Source: a bacterium
Lineage (GTDB): Bacteria; UBA8248
Length of the DNA: 64,000 bases
Direction of reading: 5' to 3'
Assembly: GCA_965207065.1 (NCBI GenBank)
Contig: OZ242260.1
Coordinates: 4,384,001-4,448,000 of the forward strand
This document shows, piece after piece, positions 1,169 through 64,000 of the stretch. The notes under the pieces are model-generated. The model was not told the origin of the DNA. It saw only the letters and a list, made by a program, of their open reading frames with translations, and made no database searches. Within the stretch, counting starts at the first letter, position 1; every line of letters begins with the position of its first letter. A program made the position numbers and the translations under genes.

Positions 1169-1945
1169 TCACGACAGGCGCACAAATGCGCCTTCGACGA
1201 CCCCGCTCAACCAGGAAACGGGAGGAATTCTCGATAGCAGGGCCTCCGTACCCAACCACAGGCGTGGATGCGCTCCCAGCAATTGCCTGAGTCTTTCCGG
1301 CAAAGGGGTGAAATTCTTCGGCAAGGTGTTCGAATACCATGTCCTGATTGCCCGAAACCCGAACCGGGAAAGGAGGCGACACATTATTATTATAGAATAG
1401 AGCCGGTCGTGAGCGCTCGCCTTGAAAATGTTTCTCGCGATGAACTCCGCATAGCTCCATTCGTTGGGAAGCATCATCACGACGAACAACCCCCCGGGGC
1501 GCAAAATGCGCCGTATTTCCGTGAGTGAGCCGCTCTCGTCTTCCACGTGCTCCAGAACGCCGCAGGACAAAACGACGTCGAACGTCTCATCCTCGAAAGG
1601 AAGCCGAACGGGGTCTTCACCATAAACGACATCGAGTGCATGCTCGCGTAGAAAGGAATTCCAAGGAGAGGGATATTGTGACTCGATGGTATAGGAGACG
1701 ACGTTAAAACCCCGGTTTCTCAGCAAATAAGACATTTGCCCATAGCCGCATCCCCAATCCAGCAATCTGCCGCCATCCAATTTCAGGTCACTCACGATAT
1801 CCGCTTTGCACTGGTAATTGGCGCGTCCCAGCGGCGTGGACAAGTGATTCAGACCGGCGCAGCCTTCGGCCAGCGAACGCTCGACGGCACGGGCGAGGGC
1901 CGCCATCTCTTCGGACTCAGCTCGAGAAGAGCGTTTCTTCCGCAT
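1169..1945 (-). CDS. Class I SAM-dependent methyltransferase
   Basis: LLDWGCGYG motif I; LPFEDETFDVV; VLEHV; LRPGG. Confidence 0.85.
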   Translation of the reverse strand: MRKKRSSRAESEEMAALARAVERSLAEGCAGLNHLSTPLGRANYQCKADIVSDLKLDGGRLLDWGCGYGQMSYLLRNRGFNVVSYTIESQYPSPWNSFLREHALDVVYGEDPVRLPFEDETFDVVLSCGVLEHVEDESGSLTEIRRILRPGGLFVVMMLPNEWSYAEFIARNIFKASAHDRLYSIIIMCRLLSRFGFRAIRTWYSNTLPKNFTPLPERLRQLLGAHPRLWLGTEALLSRIPPVSWLSGVVEGAFVRLS

Positions 1946-2085
1946 GGAGTGTAGATCCTGTTTTTTCGTGGAGGCAAGATTACTCTAACTCCAGGGCCAC
2001 GTGGAACACAATGCTCGCTTGACACGGGGCCGGTGGTGGGAGAACTTCCGAATAACTTGATCTCCACTTATACGAGGGAAACGCC

Positions 2086-2952
2086 ATGAACGATCGTGGT
2101 GCGCGCCTTCGGGCGCTTCTGGAAGAAAACCGACCCGTTCTCGCTCCCGCCTGCATCGACGCTTTCAGCGCGCGCATGGTGGAGCAGGCGGGGTTCGAGG
2201 TGAACTATCTGACGGGCAACGGCGCCTCGGCGGCGCTCCTCGGCAAGCCCGACGTGGGCTTCATGACGCTGCGCGAGGTGGCTGACGTCTGCCGGAACAT
2301 CGTACAAGCCACTTCCATTCCCCTCATCGCGGACGCCGACACCGGCTACGGCAACGCCGTGAACATGATCCGCACCGTCCGCGAACTCGAATCGGCGGGC
2401 GTCGCCTGCATCCAGATCGAGGATCAGATTACCCCAAAAAGGTGCGGCTTCCTGCCCGGCTCGGTACCCGTCATTTCGCTGGAAGAACAACTCGGCAAGC
2501 TCAAGGCGGCACTCGACGCGCGCGAGAGCGAGGATTTCCTCATCCTCGCCCGCACGGACGCAGCCGCCGATCACGGTCTGGATGAGGCGATCCGCCGGGC
2601 CGTCGCCTATAAGGAAGCCGGAGCCGACCTCACCTTTATCGAGGTGGAAGGCACCGAAGAGGAACTCAGAAAAATCGGAGCGGAAGTCCCCCCGCCCCAC
2701 GTCACCACGCTGGATGAATCGAGGCGCGAGGCGGCACTCAGCGTGGATGAACTCGGAGAACTCGGCTTCGGCGTCATCATCTACCCGGGCATCGTGCGCT
2801 GCACGTATCTCAAAGCGGTGAACGACGTGCTGCGCATCTTGAAAGAAGAAGGCTCTACGCGCTCGGCGCGCGACATGATGGCCACATTTCAGGAATACAA
2901 CGACGCCCTGGGCATCTCGGAAATTCAGACGTGGGAGCGCGAATACCTCTAG
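2086..2952 (+). CDS. Isocitrate lyase/PEP mutase superfamily enzyme (PrpB/dimethylmalate lyase-like)
   Basis: DADTGYG, IEDQ..PKRCG and ARTDA motifs. Confidence 0.85.
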   Translation: MNDRGARLRALLEENRPVLAPACIDAFSARMVEQAGFEVNYLTGNGASAALLGKPDVGFMTLREVADVCRNIVQATSIPLIADADTGYGNAVNMIRTVRELESAGVACIQIEDQITPKRCGFLPGSVPVISLEEQLGKLKAALDARESEDFLILARTDAAADHGLDEAIRRAVAYKEAGADLTFIEVEGTEEELRKIGAEVPPPHVTTLDESRREAALSVDELGELGFGVIIYPGIVRCTYLKAVNDVLRILKEEGSTRSARDMMATFQEYNDALGISEIQTWEREYL

Positions 2953-2983
2953 CGCCTCACCGGCGTCATGCAAGGAGCGTAAG

Positions 2984-3283
2984 ATGATCACCGTAGGGAT
3001 GTATTACGAAGTGCTGCCGGGCAAGGAAAAAGAGTTCGAAGAGAAATTCGAGGCCGTGGCCGGCGCCCTCGAAGGTCAGACCGGCCACGTGCAGAGCCTT
3101 TTGTATCAGCAGGTGAAAAACCCGAATTCCTACACCATCCTCTCGGAGTGGGGCTCCCAGGAAGACTTCATGGCCTTCATCAGGAGCGATGCCTTTCGCG
3201 CCGTCACGGACTGGGGAAAGGCGGAGATTTTAGCGGGAAGACCTCGCCACAAGCTCTATGGCCGCGAGGGCGACCTCCACTAG
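2984..3283 (+). CDS. Antibiotic biosynthesis monooxygenase (ABM) family protein
   Basis: 99 aa; YEVLPGKEKEFE...SEWGSQEDF pattern; AAGGAG RBS. Confidence 0.75.
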   Translation: MITVGMYYEVLPGKEKEFEEKFEAVAGALEGQTGHVQSLLYQQVKNPNSYTILSEWGSQEDFMAFIRSDAFRAVTDWGKAEILAGRPRHKLYGREGDLH

Positions 3284-3294
3284 AGGGAAATTGA

Positions 3295-4173
3295 ATGCCG
3301 GATATGCTCCCCTGCCCGCCACCGGACCCCCAACCCAGAGCGCCTCGTTTCAAGCTCCCCCCCGGCGCCTGGGATACCCATGGGCACATCTTCGGCCCCG
3401 AGAGCAAATACGCCTACTCCCCCAAAAGGGGCTACACGCCTCCCGACGCCCTGCTCGATGCGTACGAAACCCTCCACCGGACGCTCGGCGTAGAGGGCGG
3501 CGTTCTCACCCAGCCGAGCGTCTACGGTGTCGACAACACCGCCATGCTCGACGCCATGGCCCACTCGGGCGGGCGGCTCATGGGCGTGGCCTCCGTGGAC
3601 AAGGAGGTGAACGAGGCGGAATTGACGCGCCTCCACGACGCGGGCGTTCGCGGCTTGCGGATCAACCTGGCGGACAAGGGCGGGAATCCCTTCGACTCGT
3701 TCGCAGACGTTCAGGCGATGGGCGAGCGCATCGCGGACATGGGCTGGCACATGGAGTTTCTGATCCACGTGCATGAATTCCCAGAACTCAGGAAAACCTT
3801 CTCCTCCCTGCCCGTCCACAGCGTTTTCGGGCACATGGGATACGTACCGGCGGGCGAGGGTCTGGGCCCTCTCCAGGAATTCATGGACTTGCTCAAAGAA
3901 GGACGAACGTGGGTGAAACTCACGGGCGCCTACCGCATCACGGGCCTCGAGCGGACGCCCTATACAGACGTAGACCTCATCGCCAGCACCCTCATCGAAA
4001 CGGCGCCCGAACGCGTCATATGGGGCACGGACTGGCCGCATCCCGTCTGCAAGATACCGATGCCCAACGACGGCGACTTGCTGGATCAACTGTTCGACTG
4101 GGCGCCTGATGAAAACATCCGCAAAAAGATTCTCGTGGAAAACCCCTTGAAACTGCTCGGGCTTGAAAGATAG
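3295..4173 (+). CDS. Amidohydrolase-2 family, 2-pyrone-4,6-dicarboxylate lactonase (LigI)-like
   Basis: DTHGHIFGP, QPSVYG, GVRGLRIN, WVKLTGAYR and WGTDWPH motifs. Confidence 0.85.
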   Translation: MPDMLPCPPPDPQPRAPRFKLPPGAWDTHGHIFGPESKYAYSPKRGYTPPDALLDAYETLHRTLGVEGGVLTQPSVYGVDNTAMLDAMAHSGGRLMGVASVDKEVNEAELTRLHDAGVRGLRINLADKGGNPFDSFADVQAMGERIADMGWHMEFLIHVHEFPELRKTFSSLPVHSVFGHMGYVPAGEGLGPLQEFMDLLKEGRTWVKLTGAYRITGLERTPYTDVDLIASTLIETAPERVIWGTDWPHPVCKIPMPNDGDLLDQLFDWAPDENIRKKILVENPLKLLGLER

Positions 4174-61625: not shown

Positions 61626-62012
61626 GTGCCGGGAGGCTTCGCTCTCTCCCGCTCACGCGGGCATGTGATCCATATTCCGGTGTCTCCCCCCAATTTTTCG
61701 TCGCGGCGTCCGGTCCTCTTCACGGACGCCCATATTACCCGAAATCAATCCGCGTGCAAGGAAATTTTGTAGCGGATTTCCTGCGCCTTGCCGCCGTACG
61801 CGCTCACGACCACCATCCCCCGCGCCGGGGTTTGACAAAAAAATACGCTAAGACAGGCGGCATCCCTCTTTTCCTCCACAGGCGCGCCCCGCCCCGCCGA
61901 GAGACAGAGCCGGGCCGGGAGGGGGCGGCGGAAGGGGTCCGGGAGGGAGGCTCTCCCTCTCCGGTCAGTACCGGTCGCCGCCATCATCCACCCATTCCAA
62001 GGAGGCCGCGCG

Positions 62013-62315
62013 ATGCGGAAACCAAAACCACCGGCAAACACCTTCCTCACCCATCTCCTGGGCCCTGGCCTGGCCGACGAGCGATACGAAGTAAAACGCT
62101 ATAAAGCCACGGGAGAGGGCGACATCAGGCCCGCGCCCTCTCCTGAGAGCGGGAAGCGCGGAAGAAAACGCGTGACGGCCTCGCGCCGTGTTGTAAGGGA
62201 GATGCGTCCCGCCCGGGACGAGCTCATCATTTGTACGGGGATCAAAATCCCCGGCAGCGGCCTGCAGCTGTGGGGCGAGCACCTCGTCTGGGGACGGATG
62301 ATGAGCCGGGGATGA
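62013..62315 (+). CDS. Hypothetical protein
   Basis: AAGGAGG RBS before the ATG; no recognisable domain. Confidence 0.35.
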   Translation: MRKPKPPANTFLTHLLGPGLADERYEVKRYKATGEGDIRPAPSPESGKRGRKRVTASRRVVREMRPARDELIICTGIKIPGSGLQLWGEHLVWGRMMSRG

Positions 62316-62350
62316 GCCCGCAAGACGTCTGGCCGTATGTGGACGACCCC

Positions 62351-62598
62351 GTAAATGCAAGCATGTCAGTTGAACGATTCGGGGTCCGTGGTCAGGCGCA
62401 GTCGTATGTCCGACCTCTTGGTGCGGCATATAACTTGCCGCGGGTCTGTATGGAGATGCGCGGATCGGGTCCTAATCGGCCCATCGAGCTCAAGAGCTCT
62501 CGGCCAGACCCTGGTTTTCCGATCCTGTCTCATTGACCATTTTCCCTTACCCGTCCTCCGACCTGCTCACATTCCCGGATAATCCAATTGTCCGCCGC
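62351..62598 (-). ncRNA. Putative bridge/seekRNA of the IS1111-type element
   Basis: Segments at 62501-62509 and 62477-62483 match the two flanks of the insertion site and bracket a hairpin. Confidence 0.7.
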
Positions 62599-63624
62599 TC
62601 AGGCGACCGGCGCCGGTTCCTGGTAGACTTCTTTCTTCGTCATCAGCGCCCAGGCGATGCGCGCCATTCGATTCGCCAGCGCCACCGCGACCAGCATCCG
62701 TGGCTTGCGCGCCAGCATCCGGGCCAGCCATGAACCCGCCGGCGCACCGCGCCGGACCGCGCTGCGCACCACCGCCATGGCCCCTATGATCAACAGCCGT
62801 CTGATGTCGCGCTGTCCCATCTTCGACACTTTGCCCAGTCGGGACTTGCCTCCGCTCGAGTGCTGTCTGGGCACGAGGCCGAGCCAGGCGGAGAAGTCCC
62901 GTCCGCGCTTGAAGCTTTCCAAAGGCGGCGCGAAGGCCAGTATCGCCGACGCGGTGATCGGGCCGATTCCCGGGATGCTCATCAGACGCCTCGCCTCCGC
63001 ATCCGCGTAAGCGCCCGCGTGGAGTTGCCTCTCCAACTCCCTGATCTTCTCGTTGAGTTCGGCAATTTGATCGAGCAGAACCCCGCCCAACTCGCGGACC
63101 ACCGCCGGCAACTCCGTAACCGGGTCTCCAAGAGCCGCCGCCAGGCGAGAGATATTCACCAGTCCCTGCGGAGCGATGACCCCGAACTCCGCGAAGTGAC
63201 CGCGCAACGCATTGGCAGTCTGCGTGCGCTGGCGAACCAGGAGATCGCGCGTGCGGAACATCATCCCCTGGGCCTGCTGCGCTTCGCTCTTCACCGCCAC
63301 GAAGCGCATGGTCGGGCGCGAGGCGGCCTCGCAGATCGCCTCCGCGTCCGCCGCGTCGTTCTTCTGACGCTTGAGGTAAGGCTTCACGTAGACCGGTGGC
63401 ATGAGCTTCACCTCGTGGCCGATCTTGCCGATCTCGCGGCCCCAGTAGTGCGCGCTCGCGCACGCCTCCATCGCAATCAGGCAACGCGGCTGCGAAGACA
63501 GAAAACCCGGTACTTTCCCCCGGCTCAGTTTCTTGCGAAACGCGACCGAACCGTCCGGACGCGCGCCATGGAGCTGAAAACCATGTTTCGCCAGGTCGAT
63601 GCCGATGATGTGAACCTGTTCCAT
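62599..63624 (-). CDS. IS110 family transposase/recombinase
   Basis: IGIDLAK, MEAC, KNDAADAEAI (DEDD RuvC-like), SIPGIGP, AWLGLVPRQHSSGG, VALANRMAR. Confidence 0.95.
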   Translation of the reverse strand: MEQVHIIGIDLAKHGFQLHGARPDGSVAFRKKLSRGKVPGFLSSQPRCLIAMEACASAHYWGREIGKIGHEVKLMPPVYVKPYLKRQKNDAADAEAICEAASRPTMRFVAVKSEAQQAQGMMFRTRDLLVRQRTQTANALRGHFAEFGVIAPQGLVNISRLAAALGDPVTELPAVVRELGGVLLDQIAELNEKIRELERQLHAGAYADAEARRLMSIPGIGPITASAILAFAPPLESFKRGRDFSAWLGLVPRQHSSGGKSRLGKVSKMGQRDIRRLLIIGAMAVVRSAVRRGAPAGSWLARMLARKPRMLVAVALANRMARIAWALMTKKEVYQEPAPVA

Positions 63625-63750
63625 GGGATACTCCTTCCAGGCGATTTAGAGACGCTACCTCGCCACAGTGTGATACCTGCCAGGAGGGGTCGTCCACCCC
63701 ATCGGCCCACTGCCGGCCGTACGACTTCACCGACACATGAGGAAAATCCC

Positions 63751-64000
63751 ATGCCTCACAAGGATCCGGAAACCAAGCGCAAGTACGAGCGCGAACACCA
63801 CAGGCGGAGGACGGCCGAACGCCGCGCGCGGGGGGCTTGTGTAAAGTGCGGTGAACATCCTCCTGCGCCCGAGAGAACTCTCTGCGAATCCTGCCTCGGA
63901 AAAGCCCGGGACGCCGAACGCGCCAGATACGCCAAAGCCCGGGAAGAGGGTTTCCCATATGGCGGGAGAGACCCCGAAAGCCGCCGCCGCATGGCGCGGG
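63751..64000 (+). CDS. Arg-rich hypothetical protein with two CxxC motifs (runs off the window end)
   Basis: Own translation: MPHKDPETKRKYEREHHRRRTAERRARGACVKCGEHPPAPERTLCESCLGK...; GAGG RBS. Confidence 0.6.
   Translation, partial: MPHKDPETKRKYEREHHRRRTAERRARGACVKCGEHPPAPERTLCESCLGKARDAERARYAKAREEGFPYGGRDPESRRRMAR

Follow-up and report, generated by a model that had tools for sequence, protein, structure and literature searches.

The window analysed here, a 64,000-nucleotide (nt) stretch of a bacterial contig (OZ242260.1, positions 4,384,001 to 4,448,000), carries an insertion sequence (IS) of the IS1111 group, which we call copy A, together with the gene of a non-coding RNA that appears to hold guides to the place where the element sits. 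Copy A spans window positions 62336-63702 on the minus strand (1,367 bp), with the dinucleotide CG on either side of it (62334-62335 and 63703-63704); its ends are set by sibling copies with other flanks and by an uninterrupted paralogous empty site. The intact gene for the transposase, or bridge recombinase, lies at 62599-63624 (minus strand) and encodes 341 amino acids (aa), a length within the 330-350 aa reported for IS1111 transposases (PMC11187229). On the 3' side of the gene the element has 263 nt of non-coding sequence, compared to 78 nt on the 5' side. Subterminal inverted repeats of 12 nt, with one arm at the element's 3' end in transposase sense (62339-62350) and the other at its 5' end (63686-63697), are 100% complementary and sit 3 and 5 nt inside the element ends; for the IS1111 group, repeats of 7-17 bp are described (PMC11208160).

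The family assignment of the transposase, made from Pfam, NCBIfam and PDB alignments, is clear. Pfam detects DEDD_Tnp_IS110 (PF01548; E 2.9e-13, 50.3 bits) and Transposase_20 (PF02371; E 7.6e-25, 87.5 bits), both above cut-off, and the NCBIfam equivalog NF033542, named 'IS110 family RNA-guided transposase', scores 322 bits against a cut-off of 140. The best matches among solved structures are ISCro4 (9t56) and IS621 (8wt6), mainly over the C-terminal domain, and in the HMMER alignment to ISCro4 the stretches IGIDLAK, AMEA, NDAADAEA and GLVPRQHSSG are aligned. A check of IS110-family motifs found both the RuvC-like domain's acidic residues and, in G--P----SG, the SG in place; the residues within these motifs that are presumed to be catalytic follow work on IS621. 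A GL-P----S(t)G motif is given for IS1111 transposases (PMC11187229). Taken together, the protein domains, the inverted repeats and the longer 3' non-coding region are published hallmarks of the IS1111 group (PMC11187229; PMC11208160), which bears out the sequence-only reading that had called this an IS1111-type element.

Read on the minus strand, the non-coding region 3' of the transposase gene contains two segments that match the element's own insertion site. Guide 1, GUCUGGCCG (62501-62509), on the 5' side of a putative target loop, matches the element's own flank and core at 9 of 9 positions: GTCTGGCCG stands at 62327-62335 on the plus strand, where it comprises the target half-site next to the IS 3' end and the CG core, and again at 62501-62509 on the minus strand, so that, in the downstream flank and core, it is the top strand (transposase sense) to which the guide is complementary. 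Guide 2, UGGGCCG (62477-62483), on the 3' side of the loop, matches at 7 of 7 positions, TGGGCCG being the reverse complement of CGGCCCA at 63703-63709 (plus strand), the CG core and half-site next to the IS 5' end; it thus has the top-strand sequence of the upstream flank and core. Between them lies the inner hairpin of the target loop, of GAGCUC type (62484-62500, minus strand; helix columns 58-61/68-71 of the alignment described below). In the RNA, the top-strand match stands 5' of the bottom-strand match. The 9-mer on its own is not rare, with 3 matches in 64 kb against 0.99 expected, a count which 4 of 100 shuffled sequences also reach; the composite pattern of guide 1, 10-25 nt and guide 2 occurs once in the window and in none of 100 shuffles.

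Sibling copies were sought in the genome, which consists of one contig of 4.48 Mb. Copy B is full length and 100% identical to copy A; copy C (genome C1:354645-356012) is full length with 96% identity; copy D, with 95% and 91% identity, is in two parts separated by a 2.57-kb insert; copy F retains its 3' half only (80%); and copy E (82%) keeps its 5' end and is missing the RNA region, leaving no guides to test. A covariance model of the RNA module, R1, detects the module in A, B, C, D and F and in one weak remnant. In each of four copies guide 1 equals the copy's own flank plus CG at 9 of 9 positions (GTCTGGCCG in A, GTACCGCCG in C, GTATGGCCG in D and GTACATTCG in F), while all 7 positions of guide 2 agree with the reverse complement of the opposite flank and its CG (TGGGCCG in A, CCCGCCG in C and CAGGACG in D), copy F having lost the end that guide 2's flank would face. 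Since C, D and F are inserted elsewhere than A and their guides have changed along with their sites, these copies carry the signature of RNA guidance. The sequence-only reading would have taken other insertions outside the target of copy A as evidence against it; C, D and F do lie outside it, but each has guides to its own flanks, which supports RNA guidance.

Substitutions between the copies are concentrated in the guides. Copies A and C differ at 6 of 16 guide positions and at 54 of 1351 positions elsewhere (Fisher p=3e-5); for D the figures are 4/16 and 46/1023 (p=0.006), and for F 7/16 and 164/841 (p=0.025). Variation among the copies extends to the hairpin loop and to the linker that follows guide 2, so that the whole target cassette is hypervariable. 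Only A and B have an intact transposase in this genome, and their genes are identical. In copy C the guides are still perfectly matched and the gene has a premature stop at codon 17 (CAG to TAA), so this copy could move only with transposase supplied in trans from A or B. The insert that splits the gene of copy D (genome C1:1512469-1515040; about 1470-4040 of the extracted locus L095) encodes a 691-aa large serine recombinase with Resolvase, Recombinase and Zn_ribbon_recom domains and a C-terminal HTH_17.

A scan of genome contigs for relatives yielded 80 loci with transposases 60-82% identical, from hosts in the Alphaproteobacteria, Vicinamibacterales, Longimicrobiales and other groups, and their 3' regions share a strongly conserved scaffold. 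Extraction with regular-expression anchors recovered all parts in 41 of 72 records, giving 40 unique guide and flank sets; in the other 31 it failed on diverged anchors, short contigs or an insert in the tail. Guide 1 shares at least 7 nt with its own flank in 20 of the 40 sets, compared to 2 of 1534 mismatched pairings, and guide 2 shares at least 6 nt in 27 of 40, compared to 13 of 1534; both hold in 12 of 40 sets and in none of the 1534 mismatched pairings. An unbiased scan, in which each RNA column was compared with each flank or end position over a model-based alignment of 74 rows (73 unique), recovers exactly three guide segments, two for the target and one for the donor. Columns 62478-62483 carry the same bases as the 5' flank in 54-61 of 64 relatives; columns 62404, 62406 and 62408 equal the core and the variable IS 3'-end positions in 58-59 of 62; and columns 62502-62509 are complementary to the 3' flank in 27-39 of 62, a value blurred by one-base shifts of register and reached in 0 of 200 shuffles.

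The boundaries of the element can be read from an unoccupied site. The sister paralogue of copy B's surroundings (genome 1549939-1550531, 98% identical to B's flanks) carries GACGTCTGGCCGGCCCACTGCC uninterrupted and with a single CG, which proves the element boundaries and the single CG of the empty site. The corresponding sister of copy A (genome 18994-19587, 95%) has a target that is 3 nt shorter and imperfect; it reads GTCTGGC---CCCACT, lacking CGG, and may be a natural variant or a scar. At this point several statements of the sequence-only reading can be placed: its guide strings around the CG core were all located in the window where it had put them; the target GTCTGGC-CG-GCCCA, which it had restored on paper, exists as a real paralogue with one CG; and its headline, a 3' non-coding RNA with two guides to the element's own insertion site, is backed by the covariation of guides and flanks in siblings and relatives alike.

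Copies A and B have identical flanks and are therefore not independent insertions. They share a 100% identical tract made up of the IS, 141 bp to its left and about 75 bp to its right, set in paralogous DNA of 64-92% identity, and inside this tract both copies differ from both sister paralogues, a pattern that points to gene conversion. Judging from these alignments, A and B are most likely one insertion that would have been copied, along with about 220 bp of flank, from one to another of a set of paralogous repeats resembling integrative and conjugative elements (ICEs); two separate transpositions appear less likely. The repeat around A and B occurs at at least 7 places (paralogues lie at genome 18994, 75103, 356611, 908730, 1191116, 1549939 and 1932848), and copy C sits in the same repeat family at another position. 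The stretch that hosts the IS (window about 61976-64000 and beyond; locus L094) is conserved and intergenic, just upstream of an open reading frame (ORF) of 269 aa that runs from window position 63751 onward and has weak, sub-threshold matches to double-zinc-ribbon Pfam families. The repeat neighbourhood encodes a TrwC relaxase (973 aa), a YspA/SLOG protein, an HU-like protein and an AAA_14/DUF4143 ATPase, and the repeat looks like a multi-copy ICE or integrative and mobilizable element (IME).

The guides are embedded in a conserved RNA module of 162 nt (62390-62551, minus strand), defined by alignment and consensus fold and scored at 169.5 bits by model R1, which comprises a target arm and a donor arm. 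In a 29-sequence alignment the consensus fold has 32 pairs, with 98.6% of cells paired and 7 pairs changed on both sides; 0 of 500 shuffles reach these values, and slid controls are 25-41% paired. It is built from the target arm's base stem, the inner hairpin, two donor-arm helices and an invariant outer closure. The base stem joins a 5' strand at 62519-62526, from which copy A lacks one G kept in B, C, D and F, to a 3' strand, CCGAUCC, at 62462-62468 (both minus strand; helix columns 30-37/89-96), and 4 of its pairs are changed on both sides. In the inner hairpin, pair 59/70 stays paired through two-sided changes in 15 of 29 sequences. The donor-arm helices (GACCC/GAGGUC and the GCGGC/GCCGC hairpin; 62412-62446, minus strand; columns 112-116/146-151 and 118-122/134-138) include pair 113/150, which 24 sequences form as G-C and 3, copy A among them, as A-U. 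RNAalifold closes the whole module by the invariant pairs 1-7/167-173, about which covariation is uninformative. For a closing helix of the donor arm (columns 97-101 with 163-167) several registers were tried by eye, and none is kept in the relatives. The minimum-free-energy fold of the single sequence pairs the two guides with each other; as the target is partly palindromic, such pairing is to be expected and this fold says nothing about the loop. The alignment was also the basis of model R1, which recognises the module in 71 of the 73 related sources; of the two it misses, one has a truncated gene and the other is a contig that stops at the gene.

On the donor side, the 3' side of the arm contains the segment ACAUACG (62403-62409, minus strand), which reproduces the final 5 nt of the IS followed by the CG core; the slightly longer string ACATACGA is located at 62402-62409 (minus strand). 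Among relatives, 40 of 43 records have a corresponding motif without any mismatch to their IS 3' end and core, and these fall into seven types (ACACACG, ACAGATG, ACATACG, ACACATG, ATAGACG, ATAAATG and ACAAAAG), which include the cores CG, TG and AG. One of the three misses is a regular-expression artefact of a nested insertion, and the other two have CA at the 3' junction. Two donor guides had been proposed from the sequence alone. The first, a match to the predicted circle junction, gains from this covariation with the IS 3' end and core over seven types. The second, ATCGT, had been placed at about 62375-62379 and is found one base away, at 62374-62378 (minus strand); we reject it, as the 28 tails that were aligned show no conservation there (aactgt, agccgt, agacgt and others) and the bases do not track the core. 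A further candidate, CUCCAU (62450-62455, minus strand), is complementary by eye to AUGGAG, or to AUGGGG with one G-U pair, and could read the element's first six bases, but no covariation of this segment with the IS 5' end was found among the relatives. At column 62408 (minus strand) the RNA varies between C and U, and in 44 of 64 relatives this base is complementary to the one, G or A, at the fifth position of the IS 5' end, compared to 30 after shuffling and with 0 of 200 shuffles reaching it; this association could be due to shared ancestry or to a second pairing role of the column.

Some relatives have themselves become targets, or show unusual tails. At three loci, L016 (about 1390-2950), L038 (about 2599-2770) and L039 (about 1257-2800), the element is inserted within the bridge-RNA module of another member. 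The L039 guides, GTATGTCCG and GAGGCCG, match AGAGGC-CG-GACATAC, the donor-guide segment of an L037-type module; the L038 module is broken at the same AGAGGC-CG-GACATAC site in a different genome; and the L016 guides match GGGCAAA-CG-GTCAAT in the module's conserved 5' part. From these matches, the three cases may represent RNA-guided disruption of a rival element's guide RNA. At L041 (2783-3919), nine tandem partial copies of the RNA module, from the donor arm to the IS end and with a period of 131 nt, directly follow a complete element, which could be a real amplification of the end or an assembly artefact. Seven loci from Vicinamibacterales (L019, L023, L024, L027, L028, L044 and L060) have a tail from module to IS 3' end of about 200-360 nt compared to about 70, and the same loci have TG at the 5' junction together with CG in guide 2 and the donor guide.

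Joining the element's ends over one CG would also create a promoter-like sequence. The box TTGCAT (62355-62360, minus strand), which resembles a -35 hexamer, would then stand 17 nt from TACGAT, a -10-like hexamer spanning TA|CG|AT across the junction. The CTTGC within this region is conserved in 28 of 28 aligned tails, and 26 of 27 junction models combine TTGNNN with a -10-like hexamer whose first base lies 2 nt ahead of the junction, the spacing being 17 nt in 25 and 16 nt in 1. A junction promoter is described for IS1111 elements (PMC11187229), and the predicted TTGCAT-17-TACGAT arrangement agrees with it.

Among public sequencing runs, 20 listed ones hold part of the stretch, and four were examined, all as contigs, among which no circle junction was seen. 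In run X4 a change in the flank (62331, G>C) is accompanied by one in the guide (62505, C>G), both sequences becoming GTCTCGCCG. This is a further independent case of covariation, though flank base and guide base come from two different contigs that overlap. Guide 2 has changed too, and the X4 contigs do not reach the right flank. An X4 contig (side 21) shows the joint 62336>63844, unlike the expected precise excision. Contigs of X1, X2 and X4 carry an extra base in the target-arm stem after 62518, and in X2 such contigs account for about half of the depth there (43.6/87.7), so that both stem forms, with and without the extra G, may exist in that sample. Contigs of X16, an RNA library, are about 93% alike over 62364-62611; DNA carry-over is possible, and we take them as at most a weak hint of transcription, from a relative.

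We suggest that copy A is an IS1111-group (IS110 family) IS that chooses its insertion site by means of its own non-coding RNA, a reading to which we assign a probability of about 0.92. The analysis directly establishes the protein family, the ends, the single-CG empty site, a two-armed RNA gene and three covarying RNA segments. The steps of the mechanism are modelled on the published ISEc11, ISPa11 and ISKpn4 (PMC11187229) and IS621 (PMC11208160). By analogy with these, the element would be excised as a circle with its ends joined over one CG, and the promoter TTGCAT-17-TACGAT formed at the junction would drive both transposase and RNA. The transcript would be processed to a short form, the target arm, and a long form, and the DEDD/serine recombinase would bind the RNA. 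The guide 1 side would pair with one target strand and the guide 2 side, equal to the upstream flank plus core, with the other, while the RNA would also pair with the donor junction, ACAUACG reading the IS 3' end and core. Strand exchange at the CG core would then leave a CG on either side of the inserted element.

Several observations weigh against this reading. All function is deduced from sequence and from published relatives. The match of guide 1 to its flank is shorter than 7 nt in 20 of 40 relatives, partly a matter of alignment register and partly reflecting real mismatches; no RNA segment covaries with the IS 5' end in the scan of relatives; and in ISEc11 a short, target-only seekRNA sufficed for transposition (PMC11187229), which implies that the donor arm may be dispensable. 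One and the same 29-sequence alignment served both to derive the consensus fold and to count its pairs, and an Rfam scan of 61800-64000 found no bridge-RNA family, returning only two sub-threshold chance matches (mir-650 and sR28). Copy A lacks one G of its target-arm base stem, of which 7 bp remain. Copies A and B do not count as independent insertions, and the perfect empty target at 1549939-1550531 is unoccupied despite the intact transposases of both.

If the guide matches were chance, or a by-product of the GC-rich and partly palindromic site GGCCGGCC, the site could be chosen by protein-DNA recognition alone. The threefold occurrence of the 9-mer against 0.99 expected is in keeping with this, as is the pairing of the two guides in the minimum-free-energy fold, which a partly palindromic target predicts. 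The composite pattern, however, appears in 0 of 100 shuffles, and a change of flank goes with a change of guide in C, D and F, in the relatives and in run X4; we therefore consider chance very improbable. Even less credit is due to the idea that the boundaries are misset and the 'flanks' belong to the element, the identity of guide and flank being an internal repeat. It is true that the ends listed in ISfinder for IS110/IS1111 elements are often misplaced (PMC11187229), but one paralogue has both flanks joined by one CG with no element between them, and the unrelated flanks of C, D and F begin exactly at the same element ends.

A much more serious alternative, to which we give somewhat less than even odds, is that copy A is a passive or impaired passenger, derived from copy B by homologous recombination or gene conversion and carrying a deletion in its RNA stem, in a family that is largely inactive in this genome. 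The identical A/B tract inside 64-92% paralogous DNA, where both copies differ from the sisters, fits this picture, as do the 3-nt shorter, imperfect target in A's sister paralogue, the missing stem G, the perfect empty target that is still unoccupied, and the decay of the other copies (C with its stop at codon 17, D split, E without the RNA and F without its 5' half). On the other hand, A and B have the same transposase ORF in intact form, and the one-base difference leaves a 7-bp stem, with X2 at half depth suggesting that both forms may exist. The sequence-only reading had described a complete element with directly readable guides; the guides are indeed readable, while the completeness of copy A is uncertain in view of the missing stem G and the probable gene conversion. 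This alternative bears on the activity of the copy and not on the nature of the element, which we continue to regard as an IS guided by its own RNA.

One can go further and propose that the long RNA of this clade is a true two-armed bridge RNA that reads the IS 3' end and a variable core (CG, TG or AG), that the target cassette turns over about 10 times faster than the rest and has given four guide sets in one genome, and that the guides of L016 and of L038/L039 are directed at conserved stretches of a sister element's gene for bridge RNA and would, by insertion, knock out a competitor's guide RNA. We regard this extended proposal as unlikely to hold in full, and we put forward the narrower reading of an IS that chooses its site by its own RNA.

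The concept itself is unchanged by these data, as it has been known since 2024 that IS110/IS1111 recombination is guided by RNA, and the name that annotation pipelines give to the protein already reflects this. What the locus offers is a natural, internally controlled reprogramming of guides, with four guide sets on one scaffold, known sites and an empty site; the 70-locus comparative set and the covariance model for this IS1111 clade are raw material for the engineering of IS1111-type recombinases. They also bear on whether the donor ends of IS1111 elements are read by RNA: covariation says yes for the 3' end, while the ISEc11 experiment found target-only RNA to be enough.

Compared to IS621, whose bridge RNA has two arms, with a target loop and a donor loop that each read both sides of a 2-nt core (PMC11208160), copy A is alike in general plan: both read the target with 9 nt and 7 nt including the core, both have a DEDD/serine recombinase, and the donor arm without a closing helix is in line with the IS621 bridge RNA as described there. 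In contrast, the RNA lies 3' of the gene in copy A and 5' of it in IS621, and the order of the target guides is reversed; the core is CG here (TG or AG in relatives) and CT in IS621; the subterminal repeats are long here; and a guide for the other donor half could not be identified in the copy A RNA. The IS621 transposase (8wt6) is distant, aligning with that of copy A over the C-terminal domain only (E 7e-12). The best solved-structure match is the ISCro4 transposase (9t56; E 1.4e-14), with the N-terminal IGID, ME and DA-DA and the C-terminal G-L-x-P-R-x-x-x-S-G aligned; overall this match is also weak, the N-terminal domain contributing 10 bits, and ISCro4 serves as a structural reference and not as a close relative.

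The closest resemblance is to the IS1111 elements with seekRNAs (PMC11187229). ISEc11, ISPa11, ISKpn4 and ISPst6 have, like copy A, a transposase of about 340 aa with GL-P----SG (here GLVPRQHSSG), and inverted repeats in subterminal position and a long stretch of non-coding sequence on the 3' side of the gene are further shared traits. Their two guides also follow each other as in copy A, the one that matches the top strand standing nearer the 5' end of the RNA; the published long seekRNAs of 145-170 nt compare well with a module of 162 nt; and the natural reprogramming seen between ISEc11 and ISXne4 has its counterpart in the joint change of guides and sites among the relatives here. Copy A thus passes the testable features of the IS1111 group with seekRNA or bridge RNA. 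It differs from these elements in its target (GTCTGGC-CG-GCCCA, in an ICE-like repeat), in its CG core and in its host lineage, and in that four guide sets are found on one scaffold in one genome, at 80-96% DNA identity; unlike the experimentally studied ISEc11 group, it is known from sequence alone. Its donor-side guide is backed by covariation, whereas for ISEc11 target-only RNA was sufficient (PMC11187229). Bridge RNAs are predicted for 93% of the IS1111 elements in ISfinder (PMC11208160) and natural reprogramming of guides has already been described for IS1111 (PMC11187229), so that copy A is a further example and no new kind of system; its main added value lies in the internally controlled guide series, together with the covariation of the donor guide in an IS1111 clade.

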